A program made the translations under genes and the position numbers. A stretch of 64,000 bases of DNA from Bacteroidota bacterium (GTDB lineage Bacteria > Bacteroidota > Ignavibacteria > UBA10030). Of the stretch, positions 5,125 through 24,170 are shown in pieces. The notes beneath the pieces were generated by a model. It saw only the letters and a program-made list of their open reading frames with translations. It was not told where the DNA came from and ran no database searches. The stretch covers positions 52,641-116,640 of the forward strand of contig JBEKAY010000005.1 of the NCBI GenBank assembly GCA_050015675.1. Direction: 5' to 3'. How positions within the stretch are numbered: position 1 is the stretch's first letter; each line of letters starts with the position of its first letter.

Positions 5125-6801
5125 TTACCAGAACCAAATATTTAACAGAATAAAGACGATTAAAGAAATAATCGCATAAAATTCCGGTCTCTTTATAAAT
5201 GGGGTATCCTGATCGAGCTTCTCCTTAGTCAATCCTTTAACCAAGCCGACAAGTTCTTCTTTCGATCTCTTTTTTGTTAACATGCTTACCACAACTGTTA
5301 CGACAACGCAGATCAACCATGCCCACCATGCTCGCCAGAAGTTAGCTGCCATGTCGCTCTGAACACTCGACATTGTGATGATACTTTGAGCAAACCAGTG
5401 AAACTTTACAGCTAAGTACATGAGGATTGACGAAAGCATCCCTACGATGAGGCCCCAAAAAGCGCCATTCGGCGTAATCCACCAGAAAAACATGCCGAGC
5501 AGCATAGTTGCAAAGAGCGGTGCATTGACCCATGAAAAAATTGCCTGCATATAATCCATGATGCTGGGAAAACCTTTTGCCCAGTATGCAGTTACTAAAG
5601 AAAGAATGACACCGACAATGGTCGACACGCGTCCCATCCAGAGAAGGTGTGCATCGGATGCTTTTTTATTCAAGACAGATTTGTATATGTCGTATGTCCA
5701 TACCGTATTGAATGCACTGATGTTACCTGCTTGCCCTGCCATAAATCCAGCAAGTAATGCTGTCACTCCTAAGCCGATTAAGCCGGGTGGATAATACCGT
5801 GCAATCAAGAGTGGCAGTGCAGAATCATAATTTGCCTGTCCTCCATCCTGTAATAATTTGAATCCACTTTTTGGATCAATGGAAAGAGCGATTGCTATCA
5901 ACCCTGCAATGATAACGATAAAAGGTAATGCCATCTTGAAGAACGATGCAAGAATTGGTGTCATGCGTGCCGAACGTAAATCCTTCGCCGAGAATGCGCG
6001 TTGAACAACAAGAAAGTCTGTCGTCCAATATCCAAAAGATAAAACAAATCCCAAGCCAAGCACGATGCCGCCCCAGTGAATAAGCATTCCGTTTTGCGCC
6101 GGATTTGACGAAGTCGACCAAAGTGTGGTAAACGAGACTTGTGGACTGTATGTGTTAATCCGTGCCATGATTTCGCTTAAGCTTCCAATTTCTATGATCC
6201 CAAGAATTGAAACAAGAAATAATCCAAACCAGATCAAGAAAAATTGGACGATTTCAGTAAAGATTGCGGACATAAGCCCACTCATTGTAACATATCCTGC
6301 AACAGTAATTGCCGAAGCCCACATGCTGTAATCCCAATTCCAGCCGAGAAATGTGTGCAGCACAAGAGCCATAGCATACAAATTGATTCCTGAGACCAAC
6401 AGCGTCATGATCGCAAAGGAGATACCATTGATGACGCGTGTTTTCTCATCAAACCGGAGTTTAAGATAACCAGGAATAGAATTGATCTTGCTGCTGTAAT
6501 AGAAAGGCATCATATAAATACCAAGGAAGAGCATTGCAGGAACTGCACCTATCCAGTAGAAATGAGCAACATACATTCCGTATTTAAAAGTATTCCCAGT
6601 CATGCCAAGTAACTCGAGCGCTCCTAGATTTGCTGAAAGAAAAGCAAGCCCTGCAACCCATGTAGAATTTTTCCTTCCGGCAAGAAAAAAATCCTCTTGG
6701 CTCTTCGTATATCTGCGAAGGTACAAACCAATGCCAAGAACAAAGCCGAAATAAACAATGATAATGACCCAATCTATGAACGATAACCCTATCGCTTCCA
6801 T
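5125..6801 (-). CDS. sodium:solute symporter, SGLT-like (probable Na+/galactose-glucose transporter)
   Basis: 558 aa and polytopic. The N-terminal pattern 'YLRRYTKSQEDFFLAGRKNSTWVAGLAFLSANLGALELLGMTG' is typical of the SSS/SGLT family. It is the first gene of the galK-galT operon, with AAGGAG before the ATG. Confidence 0.85.
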   Translation of the reverse strand: MEAIGLSFIDWVIIIVYFGFVLGIGLYLRRYTKSQEDFFLAGRKNSTWVAGLAFLSANLGALELLGMTGNTFKYGMYVAHFYWIGAVPAMLFLGIYMMPFYYSSKINSIPGYLKLRFDEKTRVINGISFAIMTLLVSGINLYAMALVLHTFLGWNWDYSMWASAITVAGYVTMSGLMSAIFTEIVQFFLIWFGLFLVSILGIIEIGSLSEIMARINTYSPQVSFTTLWSTSSNPAQNGMLIHWGGIVLGLGFVLSFGYWTTDFLVVQRAFSAKDLRSARMTPILASFFKMALPFIVIIAGLIAIALSIDPKSGFKLLQDGGQANYDSALPLLIARYYPPGLIGLGVTALLAGFMAGQAGNISAFNTVWTYDIYKSVLNKKASDAHLLWMGRVSTIVGVILSLVTAYWAKGFPSIMDYMQAIFSWVNAPLFATMLLGMFFWWITPNGAFWGLIVGMLSSILMYLAVKFHWFAQSIITMSSVQSDMAANFWRAWWAWLICVVVTVVVSMLTKKRSKEELVGLVKGLTKEKLDQDTPFIKRPEFYAIISLIVFILLNIWFW

Positions 6802-15030: not shown

Positions 15031-15882
15031 ATGGCAAACAATTATGTACATCCTGAAGTGCTCGTTGAAACGGAGTGGGTGAGTCAGCACCTGACTGACC
15101 CCAATATCCGGTTTGTAGAAGTTGATGTCGATACACACGCATATACTGAAGCTCATATTCCCGGCGCAGTCGGATGGAACTGGCAGACTCAACTCTCCGA
15201 TCAAGTTCGGCGCGACCTTGTTTCAAAGCTGGATCTGGAACTGCTGCTGGGAAAATCAGGAATTAACAATAGTACCACTGTTATTCTTTACGGAGACAAC
15301 AACAATTGGTTTGCGGCATGGGCATTCTGGCAGTTGAAAATATACGGCCACCAGGATGTGCGCATTATCAATGGAGGCCGGAAGAAATGGCTCAAAGAGG
15401 GAAGGGAAGTAACAACAGATGTTCCGACCGTTGAATGGAAAACGTACAAAGCAAAGGAGCCCGATCATTCGTTGCGTGCATATGTGCAGGAAGTATCATC
15501 TATATCCGACGATTCATGGTCATTGGTTGATGTTCGTTCAGCAGATGAATATTCCGGCAAAATACTATCTCCTCCAGGGCTTCCAGAGACATGCCAACGA
15601 GGAGGACATGTACCTGGTGCATATAATATTCCATGGGGGAAAAATGTCAACGAAGATGGCACGTTTAAATCGTTTGACAACTTGCGGACACTCTATGAAC
15701 CGCTGGGTATCACATCGAACAAAAATATTGTTGCGTATTGCCGCATCGGGGAACGATCCAGTCTGACCTGGTTTGTTCTGAAGTACCTGCTTGGATACAC
15801 AAAAGTTAAGAATTACGATGGCTCCTGGACAGAATGGGGAAATCTTGTCAATGCTCCGGTTACGCAAGGAGAACGACCATGA
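15031..15882 (+). CDS. thiosulfate/3-mercaptopyruvate sulfurtransferase (tandem rhodanese domains)
   Basis: 283 aa with two rhodanese repeats and the active-site loop 'CRIGERSS', as in mycobacterial CysA/SseB-type enzymes. AAGGAG lies before the ATG. Confidence 0.9.
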   Translation: MANNYVHPEVLVETEWVSQHLTDPNIRFVEVDVDTHAYTEAHIPGAVGWNWQTQLSDQVRRDLVSKLDLELLLGKSGINNSTTVILYGDNNNWFAAWAFWQLKIYGHQDVRIINGGRKKWLKEGREVTTDVPTVEWKTYKAKEPDHSLRAYVQEVSSISDDSWSLVDVRSADEYSGKILSPPGLPETCQRGGHVPGAYNIPWGKNVNEDGTFKSFDNLRTLYEPLGITSNKNIVAYCRIGERSSLTWFVLKYLLGYTKVKNYDGSWTEWGNLVNAPVTQGERP

Positions 15883-16118
15883 CGGTAGCACATTCATCTG
15901 ATTATCAAGAACGATGGGAATCGGTTCCACCGTTCCAGATTCATATAACAAGCTATAGGATTAATGATACATATTACTGCTCTGTGGATAATGTCGATCC
16001 CGGCGCAGTCATTGTTCGAACGAAGGGACAGGTACGGGATGAAGTTGAGTTGAAAGCTATAATGCGGGCAAAGGAACGATTAGAGTATTCCCGTCTTCGG
16101 TATGAAAAGGAAATTTGA
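15879..16118 (+). CDS. 79-aa protein of unknown function inside the sulfur operon
   Basis: The ATG at 15879 overlaps the rhodanese stop (ATGA), which suggests translational coupling. I recognise no motif. The track ORF from 15834 begins inside the rhodanese gene. Confidence 0.55.
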   Translation: MTVAHSSDYQERWESVPPFQIHITSYRINDTYYCSVDNVDPGAVIVRTKGQVRDEVELKAIMRAKERLEYSRLRYEKEI

Positions 16119-16140: not shown

Positions 16141-17115
16141 ATGACCTGGAAATCAAAAACCGACTCGTTTCCTGAAGTTCGCGAAACTTATTTGGAGCAA
16201 CGCATCCGCGATCATTCATCGGTGCTTGGCAACGTCGGCAACACACCTCTTTTGCGAATTCGAAATATCCCTATTCCGAATGACTATGTTCAGATCTATG
16301 CTAAGGCGGAATGGTTTAATCCCGGCGGTTCGATCAAAGACCGTCCTGCCTTGAACATGCTTCTGGAAGCCGAAAAGTCAGGAATGCTTACAAAGGAAAA
16401 AATCATCATCGATGCGACAAGCGGCAATACCGGCATCGCATATGCAATGATTGGAAGTGCGCTGGGATATAAAGTGGTTCTGGCGCTTCCGGCGAATGCA
16501 AGTCTGGAACGGAAACAAATGCTCCGTGCCTACGGTGCTGAGATCCTGGAAACGGATCCGCTCACCGGAACAGACGGAGCGCAACTGCACGTCAAAGAAA
16601 TTGTTGCCGCCCATCCCGACCAATATTTTTACCCTGATCAGTATAATAATCCGGCCAACTGGCTCGCGCATTACAACATAACGGCATGGGAAATTTGGAA
16701 TCAATCCAGGAATCGTATTACACATTTCGTTGCCGGGCTTGGAACGACAGGAACATTTATCGGAACAAGCCGGAGACTGAAAGAATTGGAACCGACTATT
16801 GTCTGTACATCGTTCGGACCCGATTCTCCGCTCCATGGGCTGGAAGGGCTAAAGCATTTACCTACGGCATTAGTCCCCGGTATCTACGATTCAGCTCTTG
16901 CAGACGAACATCTCACCGTCTCGACCGATGAAGCATATACCATGGTCAGACAATTGGCTCGGCAGGAAGGTTTATTTGTCGGAATTTCGAGCGGCGCAGC
17001 GCTTGCTGTTTCACTCAAGCTTGCAGCACGAATCGAGAGCGGTGTAATCGTTACGATTTTTCCTGACGGTGGTGCGCGATATAGCAGCGAACATTTTTGG
17101 AATGAAGGTGAATGA
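16141..17115 (+). CDS. cysM: PLP-dependent cysteine synthase, CysM/CysK family (probably sulfur-carrier dependent)
   Basis: Carries the PLP-lysine motif 'NPGGSIKDRPA', 'TSGNTGIA' and the 'GLGTTGTFIG' phosphate loop. Sits next to JAMM and Ubl-E1 genes, as for mycobacterial CysM. Confidence 0.85.
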   Translation: MTWKSKTDSFPEVRETYLEQRIRDHSSVLGNVGNTPLLRIRNIPIPNDYVQIYAKAEWFNPGGSIKDRPALNMLLEAEKSGMLTKEKIIIDATSGNTGIAYAMIGSALGYKVVLALPANASLERKQMLRAYGAEILETDPLTGTDGAQLHVKEIVAAHPDQYFYPDQYNNPANWLAHYNITAWEIWNQSRNRITHFVAGLGTTGTFIGTSRRLKELEPTIVCTSFGPDSPLHGLEGLKHLPTALVPGIYDSALADEHLTVSTDEAYTMVRQLARQEGLFVGISSGAALAVSLKLAARIESGVIVTIFPDGGARYSSEHFWNEGE

Positions 17116-17128
17116 AAAGGAAAATCAT

Positions 17129-17602
17129 ATGATACGATTATCAAAAAAGATTGTCGATAAGATTGAATATCACGCTGAACAAACGTACCCGGAAGAATGC
17201 TGCGGGATGATGTTGGGGTTCAACGAGAATGGTTTTCATTCAATAGAAGAAGTCATCAGGATCGACAACAGTCAAGATGAAAACCGCCGCCGCCGATTCT
17301 TCATCACGCCAGAGCAATACCGGCAGGCAGAGCAGCTTGCCAGGGAATGGAAAATGGATCTGTTAGGATTTTATCATTCCCATCCGGATCACCCCGCCGC
17401 TCCCTCGGCATTCGATACAGATCACGCACTGCCCTGGTTTACCTATATCATTGTCTCTGTGGGACAAGGCAAAGCAGCGGCGATGACTGCCTGGCTGTTA
17501 AATGAAGAACGTACTCAGTTTAATGAACGGATTATCATTGTTGAACCTTCACCAGTTTCATCTACTGCCCGGCAGGTTGCACACGCTTCGCACGGACTAT
17601 GA
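17129..17602 (+). CDS. JAMM/MPN+ metallopeptidase (Mec+-like)
   Basis: Carries 'EECCG' (catalytic Glu) and 'HSHPDHPAAPSAFD' (H-x-H-x7-S-x2-D). The ATG at 17129 is preceded by AAGGAAAA. Confidence 0.85.
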   Translation: MIRLSKKIVDKIEYHAEQTYPEECCGMMLGFNENGFHSIEEVIRIDNSQDENRRRRFFITPEQYRQAEQLAREWKMDLLGFYHSHPDHPAAPSAFDTDHALPWFTYIIVSVGQGKAAAMTAWLLNEERTQFNERIIIVEPSPVSSTARQVAHASHGL

Positions 17603-17635: not shown

Positions 17636-19084
17636 ATGTCGATCAAAGTATTTATTCCGACTCCCCTCCGGCCCTATACCGAGAAACAGGATATTGTTGA
17701 AGTAGAAGGGAAAACTGTAGAAGAAGCGCTGAAGAATCTCACATCAAAATACCGCCCGTTGCAGCAGCATCTTTATTCAGAACAAGGCTCGCTGCGCAGT
17801 TATGTCAATATCTATGTCAACGACAGCGATATTCGATATTTATCAAAAGAGAAAACGCCCGTGAAAGAAACGGATTCCATCAGTATTATTCCATCCATTG
17901 CAGGCGGAGTCGAAATAGCTGAAGCGGAGGTTGAAGAAGGAGTTCAACTGTCGAAAGAAGAAATCCTTCGCTACAGCCGGCATCTCATCATTCCTGAAGT
18001 AGGAATGAATGGACAGAAGAAATTAAAAGCTGCAAGTGTACTTCTCATCGGCGCAGGCGGACTTGGCTCGCCGCTGGCGCTGTATCTCGCTGCAGCAGGA
18101 GTAGGTAGAATCGGTATTGTGGACTTTGATGTTGTCGATGAAACCAACTTACAGCGCCAGATTATGCATACGACGAACGATATCGGAAGATCGAAACTTG
18201 AATCTGCCAGGGAATCAATCATAGAGATAAATCCTAATGTGAAAGTCGAAACATATCCAATACGTTTGTCATCAGACAATGCCCTGGAGCTGTTCAAGGA
18301 CTATGATGTCATTGTGGACGGCACGGACAATTTTCCAACACGCTATCTGGTCAACGATGCATGCGTACTGCTCGGCAAACCGAATGTGTACGGATCTATC
18401 TTCCGGTTTGATGGACAGGTGACTGTCTTTGATTCAAATCGTGGGCCATGCTATCGGTGTCTTTACCCGACACCACCTCCGCCCGGACTCGTTCCGAGCT
18501 GTGCAGAAGGAGGCGTGTTAGGAGTTCTGCCGGGAATTATCGGCACGCTTCAGGCATTGGAGACAATCAAGTTGATTCTTGGAGAAGGCGAACCACTCAT
18601 CGGGCGGCTCGTATTGTTCGACGCTCTCAAACTCAAGTTCCGTGAATTTACTCTTAAAAAGAATCCCGAGTGTCCGGTGTGCGGCACTGCTCCAACGATT
18701 CATCGGTTGATTGACTATGAACAATTTTGCGGAATAGAACCGCCCATCAAACCAAAATTTAATTTTGGCGCATCGGAAATTTCTGTGGAAGAATTAAAAA
18801 GCCGTTTGGACCATGGCGATGATCTCTATATTCTCGATGTGCGCGAGCCGAACGAGTACGAAATTGCAAACCTTGGCGGACACTTGATTCCATTAGCAGA
18901 ACTACCAGAACGCATATCCGAGCTCGATCCGGATAAAGAGATCATTGTCCATTGTAAATCCGGCGGAAGGAGTGCAAGAGCTGTGCGGTTTCTCCAAAAA
19001 GCGGGATTCGCAAACGCGAAGAACCTTGCCGGCGGTATCGACGCATGGGCTCAACGAATCGATCCTCGGGTACCCCGCTATTGA
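17636..19084 (+). CDS. fusion protein: MoaD/ThiS-like beta-grasp sulfur carrier + ThiF/MoeB E1-like adenylyltransferase + rhodanese domain (MoeZ-like)
   Basis: - Residues 1-91 end in '...SISIIPSIAGG' (GG encoded at 17903-17908).
- E1 part: 'LLIGAGGLGSPLALYLAAAGVG', 'DFDVVDETNLQRQ' and the zinc pairs 'CYRC' and 'CPVC'.
- C-terminal rhodanese with 'HCKSGGRSARA'. Confidence 0.9.
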   Translation: MSIKVFIPTPLRPYTEKQDIVEVEGKTVEEALKNLTSKYRPLQQHLYSEQGSLRSYVNIYVNDSDIRYLSKEKTPVKETDSISIIPSIAGGVEIAEAEVEEGVQLSKEEILRYSRHLIIPEVGMNGQKKLKAASVLLIGAGGLGSPLALYLAAAGVGRIGIVDFDVVDETNLQRQIMHTTNDIGRSKLESARESIIEINPNVKVETYPIRLSSDNALELFKDYDVIVDGTDNFPTRYLVNDACVLLGKPNVYGSIFRFDGQVTVFDSNRGPCYRCLYPTPPPPGLVPSCAEGGVLGVLPGIIGTLQALETIKLILGEGEPLIGRLVLFDALKLKFREFTLKKNPECPVCGTAPTIHRLIDYEQFCGIEPPIKPKFNFGASEISVEELKSRLDHGDDLYILDVREPNEYEIANLGGHLIPLAELPERISELDPDKEIIVHCKSGGRSARAVRFLQKAGFANAKNLAGGIDAWAQRIDPRVPRY

Positions 19085-19237: not shown

Positions 19238-21325
19238 ATGAGAACAAAAGTTATCCTATTAACGCTTTTATTGAACACATTACTATTCATTGATTCATTA
19301 GCTCAAAAAATGCCTCTCGTCTATGATGTTGAGAATACAGGTGCGGACTGTCCGATACCGTATTTGCCTTCATTCAACGAACTTCCTACCATCCAGGCTT
19401 TACCCGACCCGTTTGAGTGGGCCGATGGCAGAGGTCGCATCTCAAACTTCTTCGATTGGCGGTACCGGCGTGCTGAGATCAAAGCTCAGATCCAAAATTA
19501 TGAGATTGGACCCAAGCCAGCTGTTGATCCATCACAAGTTACTGCCAGTTACTCTGGTGGAACACTCACAGTGAATGTAACTGTGAATGGACAGACGCTC
19601 ACGCTGACTTCGCAAGTTATCCTCCCATCGGGGAGCGGCCCCTTCCCTGCAGTGATCGGTATGCTTCAAAGTATCCCGTCTACCATCTTTAGCAGTCGCA
19701 ATATTGCACAAATCACTTTCAACTATAATCAGGTAACGACTGATGGCAGCGCGAACAATACGAACCCCTACTACCGGCTTTACCCTTATCTTAACATTGA
19801 TAATACGGGACAATACAGCGCATGGGCTTGGGGAGTCAGCCGTATAATCGATGGCTTGGAATTGGTTCAGAATGTTCTCCCCATAGATCTAAAGCACATA
19901 GCCGTTTCCGGTTGCTCCCGTGGTGGCAAAATGGCACTCTTTGCCGGGGCGCTTGACGAGCGTGTTGCACTTACAATTGCCCAAGAGTCGGGTGGCGGTG
20001 GCGCCACGTCGTGGCGATACTCGCAGTCCGAGCCTAATGGTACCGTGGAAAAGATAGATAATACAGATCACAATTGGTTTATGAATTCCATGACCCAATT
20101 TTCCAGCAATAATGTTTCGTACCTCCCAGAGGATCATCATGAGTTAATGGCAATGTGTGCGCCCCGTGCGTTGTACGTTACGGCAAACCCGGATTATACA
20201 TGGCTGTCAAATCCGTCGTGCTACGTCTGTAGTAAGGCTTGTCAGCAGGTCTATAATACTCTTGGCATAGCCGATAGGTTCGGTTTTTCCATTGTCGGCG
20301 GACATCAGCACTGCCAGTTCCCGAGCAGCCAAATACCGGAAATTCAAGCCTTTGTGGATAAGTTCCTACTTGGCAAGGCAGGCGTAAGGACGAACGTCGC
20401 TACAACTCCGTATAATACCGACCTTTCCCGCTGGATTACGTGGACTACACCAGCACTTTCTAACGATACATCTTTTTTTGGATCGGCATCTTTAATCTAT
20501 CCTACGAATCTTCAAATAGGTGTGGATTCAAATATTACCGTTAAATGGACCACGGTAAAAGATGCACAAAAGTATTTTATCCAATTATCAATAGACCCGA
20601 CATTTACAACCATTGATAAGAGTGATTCAACGACTACAGATACTGTAAAAACATTCACCGGCTTATTAGAAAATAAAAAATACTATTGGCGTGTCCTAGT
20701 AAAAAGTACTGCTGGTTTAGGTCCATGGAGCGAACAATGGAGCTTTATCACAGAACTACCACCAGCTAAGCCGCAATTAGTTGATGCCATACCAATTCAA
20801 AATCAACCCTCTGTAACATTTAGGTGGAAACAAGTAAAAGACGCTGATCAATATTTTATCCAAGTATCTTACATGCAGAGCTTCGGTGCTTTAAATAATA
20901 GAGATTCTACAACATCAGATACCGTCAAAACTTTAACGGGCTTTTATGAAGGACAAAATTTCTATTGGAGAGTTCAAGCAAAAAATCTTGCGGGCTTTGG
21001 TCCATGGAGCGATGCATCGAATTTTACTGTAACTTCAGTTGTTAAAGAAGAAGAAATACCAACAGAGTATTCAATAAGTCAGAACTATCCCAACCCATTC
21101 AACCCGACTACAAAATTAAAATTTGCTTTGCCGCAAAGGTCGCTAACAAAACTGATTATTTACGATCTCCTTGGTAGAGAAGTACAGACCCTAATAAATA
21201 AAGAGCTAGAAGCGGGTTATCACGAAATTAATTTCGATGCAAACAAAATCCCAAGCGGAATCTATTTCTACAGAATTCAATCCGGAGATTTTATTCAGAC
21301 AAAGAAAATGATTCTAATCAAATAA
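19238..21325 (+). CDS. secreted CE15-type glucuronoyl esterase with two Fn3-like repeats and a T9SS C-terminal sorting domain
   Basis: - Signal peptide, then the CE15 nucleophile motif 'GCSRGGK' (19910-19930).
- Two ~90-aa repeats (about 20489-20752 and 20753-21031) sharing 'KW..VKDA..YFIQ.S......D..T.DT.KT.TG.......YWRV.......GPWS'.
- Tail 'QNYPNPFNP...IYDLLGREV...GIYFYRIQSGDFIQTKKMILIK'. Confidence 0.85.
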   Translation: MRTKVILLTLLLNTLLFIDSLAQKMPLVYDVENTGADCPIPYLPSFNELPTIQALPDPFEWADGRGRISNFFDWRYRRAEIKAQIQNYEIGPKPAVDPSQVTASYSGGTLTVNVTVNGQTLTLTSQVILPSGSGPFPAVIGMLQSIPSTIFSSRNIAQITFNYNQVTTDGSANNTNPYYRLYPYLNIDNTGQYSAWAWGVSRIIDGLELVQNVLPIDLKHIAVSGCSRGGKMALFAGALDERVALTIAQESGGGGATSWRYSQSEPNGTVEKIDNTDHNWFMNSMTQFSSNNVSYLPEDHHELMAMCAPRALYVTANPDYTWLSNPSCYVCSKACQQVYNTLGIADRFGFSIVGGHQHCQFPSSQIPEIQAFVDKFLLGKAGVRTNVATTPYNTDLSRWITWTTPALSNDTSFFGSASLIYPTNLQIGVDSNITVKWTTVKDAQKYFIQLSIDPTFTTIDKSDSTTTDTVKTFTGLLENKKYYWRVLVKSTAGLGPWSEQWSFITELPPAKPQLVDAIPIQNQPSVTFRWKQVKDADQYFIQVSYMQSFGALNNRDSTTSDTVKTLTGFYEGQNFYWRVQAKNLAGFGPWSDASNFTVTSVVKEEEIPTEYSISQNYPNPFNPTTKLKFALPQRSLTKLIIYDLLGREVQTLINKELEAGYHEINFDANKIPSGIYFYRIQSGDFIQTKKMILIK
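21080..21325 (+). repeat. T9SS C-terminal sorting-domain cassette, copy A
   Basis: By my codon-by-codon hand alignment it shows 36 mismatches in 246 nt against 25788..26033. The catalytic parts of the two genes are unrelated. Confidence 0.75.
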
Positions 21326-21653: not shown

Positions 21654-22052
21654 CTATCGGTGAGAAAATCGGGTTGAGTGTTCTGCAAGCCAAGATGAGA
21701 GTTGCGCTTTAGAGAGTTTACCTGATGCAAGAGTCATCATCATAACGTAGGATTCTTCTTCATTAGCAGATATTTCCCAACCGTTCTTTTGAAGGAAAAT
21801 GTCCATTAATACAAATGCGACTCTCTTATTCCCATCAACGAATGGATGATTCATACAAATATGGAATCCATTAGCGGCTGCTTTATCAAAAATTGTCCTA
21901 TGTGTATATTTTCCACGTATTGTCATTTTGGGCTGAACAAGCGCAGATTCCAAAAGATTCCTATCACGAAGTCCTTTTTCTCCGCCATATCGTTGCAATA
22001 AGTCCGTATGAATCGTGATGACAATCTCTTCAGGTATGAAATGAATGGACAT
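21654..22052 (-). CDS. doc: Doc (death-on-curing) / Fic-family toxin
   Basis: 132 aa with the Fic/Doc motif 'HPFVDGNKR'. Its start overlaps the antitoxin stop (TAATG). Confidence 0.9.
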   Translation of the reverse strand: MSIHFIPEEIVITIHTDLLQRYGGEKGLRDRNLLESALVQPKMTIRGKYTHRTIFDKAAANGFHICMNHPFVDGNKRVAFVLMDIFLQKNGWEISANEEESYVMMMTLASGKLSKAQLSSWLAEHSTRFSHR

Positions 22053-22276
22053 TATTTAGCCAGAGCTTTGAGAGTATTTCGAAAGTGCTTGTTTGTGCGT
22101 TCGTATGCTTTTGCCCACTCGGAGAATTTAGGACTAAATGGAGTCAGAATAACACCTTCATCGGTTTCGATGAGATGTAATTCGTCTCCTTCATTGAGAT
22201 TATAGTTAGCAATGATAGTCCTCGGCAGCGTAATGCCAAGGCTATTACCTATACGACGCAAAGCAGTTTTGAGCAT
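22052..22276 (-). CDS. AbrB/MazE/SpoVT-type antitoxin
   Basis: 74 aa. 'RRIGNSLGITLPRTII...EGDELHLIETDEGVILTP' is the swapped-hairpin AbrB/MazE pattern. It lies directly upstream of doc. Confidence 0.8.
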   Translation of the reverse strand: MLKTALRRIGNSLGITLPRTIIANYNLNEGDELHLIETDEGVILTPFSPKFSEWAKAYERTNKHFRNTLKALAK

Positions 22277-22623: not shown

Positions 22624-22736
22624 TTAGGGGGTGTTGATACTTTTGCAATCGCAAAAAACTAATATAAATTATAGTGATTTATAAAACTTTCGATGGTTGT
22701 TTATTTACTAATTATAATATGAGGATATGCGTAATT

Positions 22737-24170
22737 ATGAAAACTACTTTTACATTGATTTTTATTTCGTTGATTCTTTCTTTCCACTCTCTTTGCGCTC
22801 AACAAAATCAAAAAAACAGGGTAATTATCTTAACCGATATCGAAGCTGATCCGGACGATACACAATCCTTAATTCGTTTGCTTTTGTATTCCAGTGTCAT
22901 AGATATAGAAGGATTCATTGCCACCACCTCCACTCACCAAAAGACCAAAGTAGCCCCTGAATCTATAAAAAAAGTAATTTATGCATATGGCAAGGTACAA
23001 GTTAACCTGAAAAAGCATGAAGCGGGTTATCCTGATGCTGAAGCGCTCATGATGCTGGTAAAGCAAGGAATACCAGAGTATGGTATGCAGGGAGTTGGCA
23101 AGGGGAAAGATTCAGAAGGTTCAGATTGGATTATAAAAGTACTGGAAAAAAACGACGAGCGTCCGCTCTGGATTTCCGTTTGGGGAGGCACCAATACCCT
23201 AGCTCAGGCACTTTATAAAATCAGAAAAACAAAAAATGAAATAGAAACTAAAAAGTTGATTGCAAAACTAAGAGTCTATACTATCTCCGATCAAGATGAT
23301 AGCGGAATATGGATTAGAAATAATTTCCCTGATCTGTTTTATATTGTCAGTCCGGGTAGTTATGGAAATTCAACATGGATTGCTATCAATCAGTTTGTGT
23401 CAGGTATAAATAATGAAATGATTAGCAATAAATGGTTGGCGCAAAACATCCAACAATGCCACGGACAGCTTGGCGCCTTGTATCCTGATGTAGCCTATGG
23501 AATGGAGGGAGATACCCCATCTTGGTTGTCTTTAATTCCGAATGGATTAAGTGTGCCGGAACATCCGGACTGGGGAGGTTGGGGTGGTCGTTATGAACTA
23601 TTCTTACCTGAGTATTCATCTTTGGATACCGGAGGATTTACAGGTGGAGTGCCAGTAGAACCCGAGACCCGAGCCATCTGGACTAATTCAGTTGATAGAT
23701 ATATACCGTTTGTTTATAATGAATGTGGACGTGCAGTTAGAAAGGATACTGTTTCATTCACCAATAATAAAGTTACTTTGTGGCGCTGGAGAGATGATTT
23801 TCAAAATGATTTTGCAGCTCGCATGGATTGGTGCACTAAGTCATATCAGGAAGCCAATCATCCACCTATTCCAGCATTAGGACACGCTGAACAAATAAAC
23901 GCAAAATCTGGTGAGGTCTTTAGTTTGGATGCCAGTGGTACTACCGACCCGGATGGAGATAATCTCAGTTACTTATGGTTTCAATATCCAGAGGCAGGTT
24001 CATATAAAAAATTGATAAAAATTAATTCGGCAGAAAATTTATACAAGGTTTTTGTGTTAGCTCCTGATGTTGAAAAAAAAGAAACTGCTCATTTCATTTT
24101 AAAAGTTACAGACAAGGGTAAACCACCATTATCAAGATACAAACGGGTAATTGTGAATATAATACCATAA
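22737..24170 (+). CDS. secreted DUF1593 protein (nucleoside-hydrolase-like N-domain + Ig-like C-domain)
   Basis: Signal peptide 'MKTTFTLIFISLILSFHSLCAQ', then 'RVIILTDIEADPDDTQSLIRLLLYS', characteristic of DUF1593. The C-terminal 'DASGTTDPDGDNLSYLWFQYPEAG' is Ig-like. No T9SS tail. Confidence 0.7.
   Translation: MKTTFTLIFISLILSFHSLCAQQNQKNRVIILTDIEADPDDTQSLIRLLLYSSVIDIEGFIATTSTHQKTKVAPESIKKVIYAYGKVQVNLKKHEAGYPDAEALMMLVKQGIPEYGMQGVGKGKDSEGSDWIIKVLEKNDERPLWISVWGGTNTLAQALYKIRKTKNEIETKKLIAKLRVYTISDQDDSGIWIRNNFPDLFYIVSPGSYGNSTWIAINQFVSGINNEMISNKWLAQNIQQCHGQLGALYPDVAYGMEGDTPSWLSLIPNGLSVPEHPDWGGWGGRYELFLPEYSSLDTGGFTGGVPVEPETRAIWTNSVDRYIPFVYNECGRAVRKDTVSFTNNKVTLWRWRDDFQNDFAARMDWCTKSYQEANHPPIPALGHAEQINAKSGEVFSLDASGTTDPDGDNLSYLWFQYPEAGSYKKLIKINSAENLYKVFVLAPDVEKKETAHFILKVTDKGKPPLSRYKRVIVNIIP

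Follow-up and report, generated by a model that had tools for sequence, protein, structure and literature searches.

A CysO-type sulfur carrier encoded in one piece with its own E1 enzyme, and the predicted release of the carrier by an adjacent JAMM peptidase

How can a sulfur carrier work when its own activating enzyme is attached to the very end that has to be activated? An E1 enzyme adenylates proteins of the sulfur-carrier family on the free carboxylate of their C-terminal glycine; conversion to the thiocarboxylate follows, by means of a rhodanese persulfide. The question is raised by a gene in a stretch of 64,000 nucleotides (here called the window) from a Bacteroidota bacterium of the Ignavibacteria, UBA10030 (assembly GCA_050015675.1, contig JBEKAY010000005.1, positions 52,641 to 116,640). 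This gene (17636-19084, + strand) encodes a protein of 482 aa and 53.2 kDa in which a CysO-like carrier is followed by a linker, a MoeB/MoeZ-type E1 and a rhodanese domain. It is the last of a co-directional cluster that runs rhodanese, 79-aa open reading frame (ORF), CysM-like enzyme, JAMM peptidase, fusion. We favor the interpretation, which we hold to be probable though far from certain, that the product is a pro-CysO fused to a MoeZ-type E1 and cut after Gly91 by the adjacent JAMM peptidase, within a cysteine pathway. That some protease cuts after Gly91 we regard as highly likely.

Three Pfam families match the 482-aa ORF, namely ThiS, ThiF and Rhodanese, and of the 120 best homologues 118 are full-length, every one of them with the same trio. 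Across the junction of the first two domains the frame reads ...SISIIPSIAGG, then VEIAEAEVEEGV, then QLSKEEILRYSRHLIIPEVG...; reading the sequence downstream of Gly90-Gly91 gives VEIAEAEVEEGV and thereafter LSKEEILRYSRHL. A CysO-type carrier is encoded here in one piece with its own activating enzyme, and the coordinates proposed for it before this analysis are correct.

The carrier domain comprises residues 1-91 (17636-17908, + strand) and would have a mass of 10.3 kDa if released. The ThiS profile (PF02597) matches residues 7-91 and is followed to its final position (76/76; E 8.5e-12). In a comparison with the PDB, the sequence of residues 1-91 aligns along its whole length with all of CysO of Mycobacterium tuberculosis (3dwg_C, 1-93; E 4e-15) and of A. 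orientalis (4n6e_B, 1-90; E 2e-14), and in both alignments the internal Gly-Gly (GG) of the fusion superimposes on the C-terminal GG of CysO. AlphaFold2, run on residues 1-100 with 64 homologues, returned a beta-grasp fold with a predicted local distance difference test (pLDDT) score above 90 for residues 1-88. A Foldseek search of the PDB with this domain placed CysO at the top rank (4n6e_B, template-modeling (TM) score 0.90 and root-mean-square deviation (rmsd) 1.6 A; then 3dwg_C and 3dwm_A), the CysO matches overall having TM scores of 0.86-0.90 and rmsd of 1.6-2.2 A; SAMP1, a Thermus MoaD-related protein and Urm1 came next. Identity to CysO is 36-37% in the structural alignment. In sequence and fold alike, the carrier resembles CysO more than it does MoaD, SAMP1 or Urm1.

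An earlier note on this DNA had read the first 91 codons as a carrier-like beta-grasp unit ending in ...IIPSIAGG, with Gly90-Gly91 at 17903-17908, followed by an acidic linker and then a ThiF/MoeB domain. The ThiS match, the CysO alignment and the predicted fold, whose nearest solved structures are those of CysO, bear out the first part of this description; the isoelectric point (pI) of the linker (4.05) and the ThiF match (residues 113-348, E 3e-87) bear out the second. The description can also be refined, since the unit is specifically the CysO of the CysO/CysM/Mec+/MoeZ cysteine pathway.

The residues predicted to be the cleavage and activation site, Gly90-Gly91 (17903-17908, + strand; codons GGC GGA), are kept at the domain boundary in all 192 fused homologues, within a junction hexamer that reads PSIAGG in 155 of them, PSVAGG in 33 and PAIAGG in 4. 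This conservation is far beyond chance, and the supposition that GG always marks the boundary in orthologs holds throughout the alignment. The linker that follows, VEIAEAEVEEGV (residues 92-103; 17909-17944, + strand), is very different: its 12 residues are acidic and predicted to be disordered, and among the 192 homologues its length ranges from 3 to 38 residues (median 13) without sequence conservation, its composition being acidic in the Ignavibacteria-like set and rich in Ala, Pro and Thr in the Acidobacteriota set. The first residue past GG is mostly V, S, A, I or T. In the AlphaFold2 models, pLDDT falls below 50 at residues 88-101 of the full-length protein and at residues 89-100 of the carrier. 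Residues 92-103 are purely a linker, since the complete CysO alignment ends at residue 91 and residue 3 of E. coli MoeB aligns to residue 104. A strongly conserved carrier tail beside an unconstrained spacer is the pattern expected if the tail later works as a free C-terminus.

The primary translation product has 391 residues beyond GG and lacks a free C-terminal glycine, and from the sequence it would appear that a free carrier end could arise by proteolysis only. A separate E1 made from an internal translation start was considered and ruled out, there being no in-frame ATG, GTG or TTG between Gly91 and Met124. A phmmer search of the 64-kb window found no second CysO-like ORF, and at none of 80 related loci did a further CysO-like gene lie within 5 kb. 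These 80 are the best loci from a scan of one genome per species, which detected at least 586 relatives, and they are the basis of the locus counts given here. Without an internal start codon or a nearby second CysO, there is no alternative route to two separate parts.

Relatives that have come apart are informative in this respect. At seven loci (L012, L022, L025, L045, L048, L051 and L070; junction near 5270-5400) an in-frame stop lies within the linker, and the E1 restarts at a methionine inside the former linker, from which we conclude that carrier and E1 can work as separate polypeptides. A close relative of these loci, L079, is fused and has a methionine at the same linker position. All seven split carriers retain a tail after GG (NGDR, CSALNK, KEAGVVKA, a single R in two cases, and two tails of 25-27 residues), and these tails strengthen the case for cleavage after GG and for the JAMM as the putative protease.

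Tails are also the rule among stand-alone relatives. In an exhaustive search with the carrier domain alone, just four of the 150 best representatives stop directly at GG, and among short-ended stand-alone relatives 47 of 51 carry 1-12 residues past GG, often Cys-first or Cys-rich. The 50%-identity representatives of the carrier-domain search include many truncated or frameshifted ORFs, and we use that search qualitatively only: few representatives end at GG, many are tailed, and further fusion partners occur. The Cys-first or Cys-rich tails include CCCCCCL, CCALI, CCVMTCGT, CCR and C (P0143, P0168, P0172, P0211, P0242 and others), some of which are possibly miscalled ORFs; a GG-Cys terminus would look like CysO-Cys, the adduct hydrolysed by Mec+. 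In the library of representatives we also observed CysO-like domains joined via an internal GG to TusA, to the Fe-S assembly domain PF01883, to NIL, to DUF4395, to a dual-specificity-phosphatase-like domain or to a second ThiS-family domain (P0238, P0236, P0260, P0268, P0122, P0174 and P0178), which suggests a wider set of GG-delimited fusion proteins.

A broader proposal can be formulated from these relatives, which we offer tentatively and think more doubtful than the interpretation of the fusion itself. In this CysO-type clade a free GG end may almost never be encoded, so that the carrier would be a pro-protein by default, bearing either a short, often Cys-first tail or a GG-joined partner from sulfur metabolism, and the JAMM peptidase would be an obligatory maturation gate as well as a recycling hydrolase. 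If this is true, pro-CysO genes would be prokaryotic counterparts of ubiquitin-fusion genes, and JAMM activity could act as a metal- or redox-sensitive control on sulfur flux into cysteine.

The gene for the JAMM/MPN+ metallopeptidase (17129-17602, + strand; 157 aa, Mec+-like) ends 33 nt before the fusion starts, and its product is our candidate for both the processing protease and the CysO-Cys hydrolase. It matches Prok-JAB (E 3e-23), and the motif E-x(n)-H-[ST]-H-x7-S-x2-D is complete (EECCG ... HSHPDHPAAPSAFD, with H-S-H-x7-S-x2-D intact), its active-site residues including H83, H85 and D96. The best PDB match is 2kcq_A (E 5e-34), with P. furiosus JAMM1 (5lda/5ld9) more distant, and the start of the 157-aa protein agrees with the start called in relatives. 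The earlier note had pointed to an adjoining JAMM gene as the obvious source of the protease; an intact JAMM gene is indeed there, and in most related loci it likewise lies immediately upstream of the fusion. Before it stands the gene for a CysM-like cysteine synthase dependent on pyridoxal 5'-phosphate (PLP) (16141-17115, + strand; 324 aa, PALP E 1.6e-66), the predicted user of the carrier thiocarboxylate. Among PDB sequences it matches CysM of Salmonella and E. coli with E 1e-66 and M. tuberculosis CysM (3dwg_A) with E 6e-51.

The order cysM-JAMM-fusion, with gaps <400 bp, is found in 67 of the 80 loci and in at least six phyla, and 76 of 78 related loci have an intact JAMM motif. Taxonomically the 80 loci belong to Kryptoniota, Bacteroidota/Ignavibacteriales, many classes of Acidobacteriota, Chloroflexota, Omnitrophica and two Thermoplasmata archaea. 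A few labels of the metagenome-assembled genomes (MAGs) concerned, Bifidobacteriaceae and Bordetella among them, seem to result from binning errors. Apparent frameshifts were seen in the carrier domain of L049 (about 5200-5300) and in the JAMM gene of L009 and L012; these are probably assembly errors, pseudogenes being another possibility.

The E1 adenylation domain, of ThiF/MoeB fold, comprises residues 104-350 (17945-18685, + strand). It is matched by ThiF (PF00899) and superposes on MoeB and ThiF with TM scores of 0.93-0.95 in the full-length AlphaFold2 model, which has a mean pLDDT of 80, a predicted TM score of 0.67 and its lowest confidence at residues 88-101. In an alignment of 64 sequences, the ATP loop GAGGLG, the DFD motif, the Zn-site cysteines C272/C275/C346/C349 and the crossover-loop C289 are all invariant. 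The rhodanese homology domain (residues 383-473; 18782-19054, + strand; PF00581, E 5e-19) carries the active-site loop HCKSGGRS, whose C440 and R445 are invariant among homologues. Together the E1 and rhodanese domains match Uba4 (6yub_A) in both sequence and structure comparison. The E1 is complete, with all catalytic features in place. NCBIfam scores are below cut-off for the MoeZ model PRK07878 (516 bits, cut-off 647) and for PRK07411 (560 bits, cut-off 633); the MoeB model PRK08762 is the sole MoeB model passed (482 bits vs cut-off 449). Public MAG annotations name fusion homologues (P0003, P0007, P0014 and others) 'molybdopterin-synthase adenylyltransferase MoeB', a name that conceals the carrier domain as well as the cysteine-pathway context.

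These parts can be assembled into a putative mechanism. A single 53-kDa chain would be translated, in which the carrier could not be adenylated because Gly91, being internal, has no free carboxylate; the fused carrier would be inert until cut after Gly91. The JAMM peptidase would recognize the beta-grasp body and the flexible ...PSIAGG tail and cut after Gly91, yielding a 10.3-kDa carrier, whose C-terminal peptide is predicted to be the non-tryptic ...ETDSISIIPSIAGG, and a 42.9-kDa E1, which would retain 12 extra residues at its N-terminus and begin with the predicted peptide VEIAEAEVEEGVQLSK. The calculated masses are 10,346 Da for the carrier, 42,897 Da for the E1 and 53,224 Da for the uncut protein. 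The E1 would then adenylate Gly91, and the Cys440 persulfide of the rhodanese domain would turn the adenylate into a thiocarboxylate, the predicted form of Gly91 in the released carrier. The CysM-like enzyme would add the thiocarboxylate sulfur to aminoacrylate derived from O-phosphoserine or O-acetylserine, and an S-to-N acyl shift would give CysO-Cys. Finally, the same JAMM would hydrolyse the Gly91-Cys bond, releasing free cysteine and regenerating the carrier; such a recurrent role would follow from the identity of the carrier as CysO of the cysteine pathway. The adjacent JAMM is the most economical candidate for the protease: maturation at Gly-Val and turnover at Gly-Cys would call for one type of reaction, performed on one carrier. 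PfJAMM1 recognizes its ubiquitin-like protein (Ubl) regardless of the attached part (PMC8832034), an indifference that fits the variable P1' side seen here.

Several points weigh against this account. We infer the cut itself, the cutting protease and every catalytic step. Full-length (fused) matches are over-represented in the set of 80 loci. L044 has neither JAMM nor cysM within 5 kb upstream of its fusion gene, and in L046 and L073 the JAMM is elsewhere. The CysM-like enzyme is below the cut-off of the NCBIfam cysM equivalog (TIGR01138; 350.9 bits vs 394.2) and also below that of the cysKM subfamily model (325.9 vs 344.15). These scores, and a closer match to enterobacterial CysM than to that of M. 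tuberculosis, leave it uncertain which substrates the enzyme uses. The protease acting on MoaX, the analogous MoaD-MoaE fusion of M. tuberculosis, was still unidentified in 2015, and E. coli cut MoaX at the wrong site (PMC4326299), so adjacency is no proof of which enzyme cuts. The MoaX case and the three fused loci without a JAMM nearby would suit a cut after Gly91 by a housekeeping protease or by self-cleavage, leaving hydrolysis of CysO-Cys, once per turnover, as the sole task of the JAMM. Moreover, actinobacterial operons in which CysO ends at GG also hold a JAMM (PMC3227635; row 4d of PMC1779556), so that JAMM presence alone is no pointer to precursor processing. We nevertheless consider such a division of labor unlikely: JAMMs are known to cut both linear MoaD-type fusions (PMC8832034) and GG-tail precursors (PMC5925218), the Gly-X bond is of the same type as the Gly-Cys bond of the adduct, and the JAMM adjoins the fusion in those 67 of 80 loci.

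A different objection is that the beta-grasp is never released, serving instead as a docking, regulatory or pseudo-substrate domain of the E1 while a free carrier from elsewhere transfers the sulfur. Such a different role was inferred for the fused domain of Campylobacter Ubl-ThiF proteins, whose operons hold a separate ThiS (Iyer et al. 2006, PMC1779556), and our search for a second carrier in this genome covered only 64 kb of it. The same paper describes those fused domains as 'distinct from ThiS', whereas here we have a full-length CysO homologue with an invariant PSIAGG-type motif; no second carrier gene stands alongside cysM and JAMM in any of the 80 loci, and the in-frame split variants show the halves functioning apart. 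A permanently attached domain therefore seems to us very improbable. It is also conceivable that the main product is not cysteine, and that carrier and E1 serve molybdopterin synthesis, tRNA thiolation or another thiocarboxylate-dependent product. The MoeB labels of the MAG annotations, the one MoeB model passed and the sub-cut-off score of the CysM-like protein would all agree with this, as would the mycobacterial precedent, MoeZR serving both molybdenum cofactor and cysteine synthesis (PMC3227635). We judge it quite improbable, because the carrier matches CysO better than MoaD, SAMP1 or Urm1 and because the genes conserved beside it encode a JAMM and a homologue of cysteine synthase; the cluster contains no moaE, moaA or thiG. 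One might lastly suspect an assembly or annotation artefact (a lost stop, a frameshift), given the split versions in relatives and the frameshift at L049. The same open fused frame is present in 192 independent sequences that come from many samples and phyla, on which ground we exclude an artefact as hardly credible. We thus retain the interpretation of a pro-CysO that is probably released from its E1 by the neighboring JAMM.

The cluster begins with two genes that we had considered as general parts of the system and rejected as such, finding them conserved only in close Ignavibacteriales relatives. The first (15031-15882, + strand) encodes a lineage-specific two-domain rhodanese of 283 aa, resembling thiosulfate/3-mercaptopyruvate sulfurtransferases, with two stretches of Pfam Rhodanese (E 6e-33) and a score of 119 bits, below cut-off, to the NCBIfam 3-mercaptopyruvate sulfurtransferase model; it may be a sulfur donor to the rhodanese domain of the E1. 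The second (15879-16118, + strand), whose start overlaps the rhodanese stop (ATGA), encodes a conserved, lineage-specific 79-aa protein with 43 homologous protein clusters (53-100% identity) and no family match in Pfam or NCBIfam. In Ignavibacteriales relatives this ORF is always between rhodanese and cysM, and the corresponding clusters of other phyla lack it; the identical five-gene set was found in one related Ignavibacteriales MAG. Elsewhere in the window, a gene for a Doc/Fic-family toxin (21654-22052, - strand; Fic E 7.5e-19) directly follows one for a MazE/AbrB-type antitoxin (22052-22276, - strand), and the two look like a toxin-antitoxin pair (21654-22276). A secreted glucuronyl esterase (CE15-like) with two fn3 domains and a type IX secretion sorting tail (19238-21325, + strand) and an Sde182-like protein of nucleoside-hydrolase fold (22674-24170, + strand) fit a polysaccharide-degrading, Ignavibacteria-type organism.

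Much of this picture is already known: the operon type since 2006, Ubl-E1 fusions since 2010, and JAMM processing both of carrier precursors and of MoaD-MoaE fusions. Our analysis adds the wide distribution of the fusion among phyla and the observation that a free GG end is seldom encoded by relatives in this clade. The arrangement, which is common in several phyla, is an expected variation on known systems that a specialist could predict, and opens no long-standing question. If the cut is confirmed, the locus would provide a clean bacterial case in which a Ubl is translated as a precursor together with its own E1 and a JAMM sets it free, and a third partner type for GG-linked carrier fusions, after discarded tails and MoaE. 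The fused arrangement guarantees 1:1 synthesis of carrier and activator, and would make the peptidase the gate for the whole pathway. Annotation is affected as well. Hundreds of these proteins in Acidobacteriota, Ignavibacteriales, Kryptoniota and other lineages of soil and sediment carry the name 'MoeB', behind which a likely thiocarboxylate route to cysteine is hidden in metabolic reconstructions.

Eukaryotic ubiquitin precursors are mostly processed by cysteine-protease deubiquitinases. The parallel drawn in the earlier note, to ubiquitin-precursor processing by JAMM deubiquitinases, can be refined: JAMM processing of carrier precursors has its precedents, and the better parallel is prokaryotic JAMM processing itself, or an archaeal Rpn11 homologue acting on a ubiquitin precursor (PMC6043591). 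The same note held that Ubl-E1 fusions have been noted in comparative genomics while their processing is largely untested, and the literature we found fits this: a 'Ubl-E1-TBP' fusion in Thaumarchaeota, 'shared with bacteria', has been reported (Makarova & Koonin 2010, PMC2948915), and in the searchable literature we found no study of a CysO-E1 fusion or of its processing. This thaumarchaeal protein and Campylobacter Ubl-ThiF share with our fusion a domain order in which the beta-grasp is N-terminal to the adenylating domain. The Campylobacter protein coexists with a free ThiS and was inferred to have a non-carrier role (PMC1779556), whereas our domain is a genuine CysO, its GG is invariant, and we found no separate carrier in the vicinity. 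Operon type 4c, catalogued by Iyer, Burroughs & Aravind 2006 (PMC1779556), comprises ThiS/MoaD, E1-rhodanese, JAB and cysteine synthase, the same gene content as here, and the taxa listed for it include the acidobacterium Solibacter and Salinibacter. The text and table of that paper list the carrier as one gene product, without mention of an E1 fusion.

The cysteine pathway of M. tuberculosis, with its CysO, CysM, Mec+ and MoeZ(R), was reportedly described by Burns et al. 2005. There MoeZR thiocarboxylates CysO, CysM adds the CysO-thiocarboxylate to aminoacrylate derived from O-phosphoserine, and the JAMM Mec+ hydrolyses CysO-Cys (PMC3227635). Our cluster encodes the same four functions, with an E1 that carries a C-terminal rhodanese, a PLP-dependent cysteine synthase homologue and a JAMM. 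In M. tuberculosis, unlike here, CysO is a separate 93-aa protein ending at GG and moeZ is elsewhere in the genome; the carrier studied here is the N-terminus of its E1 and would need an extra maturation cut, and the CysM homologue is nearer to enterobacterial CysM.

Carriers made with residues beyond GG are also known, such as HcyS, a precursor trimmed by the JAMM HcyD in Wolinella. In thioquinolobactin synthesis QbsD trims the residues past GG of QbsE, and CxnF is proposed to do so on CxnE for chuangxinmycin (PMC5925218); MetO/Mec is a further JAMM-trimmed carrier precursor system (preprint 10.1101/2024.10.14.618325). Our locus resembles the QbsE/QbsD-type systems, in which the JAMM exposes GG before a MoeZ-type E1 acts, in combining residues beyond GG with an intact JAMM in the same cluster. 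The tails of those systems are 1-10 residues long and are discarded, whereas the 'tail' here is a functional enzyme of 391 residues, the carrier's own E1.

Among linear fusions, MoaX of M. tuberculosis depends on cleavage after GG for its function (PMC4326299), DRJAMM cuts the D. radiodurans MoaD-MoaE fusion DR2607 (PMC8832034), and HvJAMM1 cuts linear SAMP1-MoaE (PMC8832034, PMC4443979). These MoaD-MoaE proteins share with our fusion a MoaD-family carrier placed N-terminal to a partner enzyme and joined to it through an internal GG, and in them cleavage is required and, in two cases, made by a JAMM. They differ in the position of the partner along the path of the sulfur: in the MoaD-MoaE fusions it is MoaE, the downstream acceptor, whereas here it is the upstream E1 that activates the carrier.

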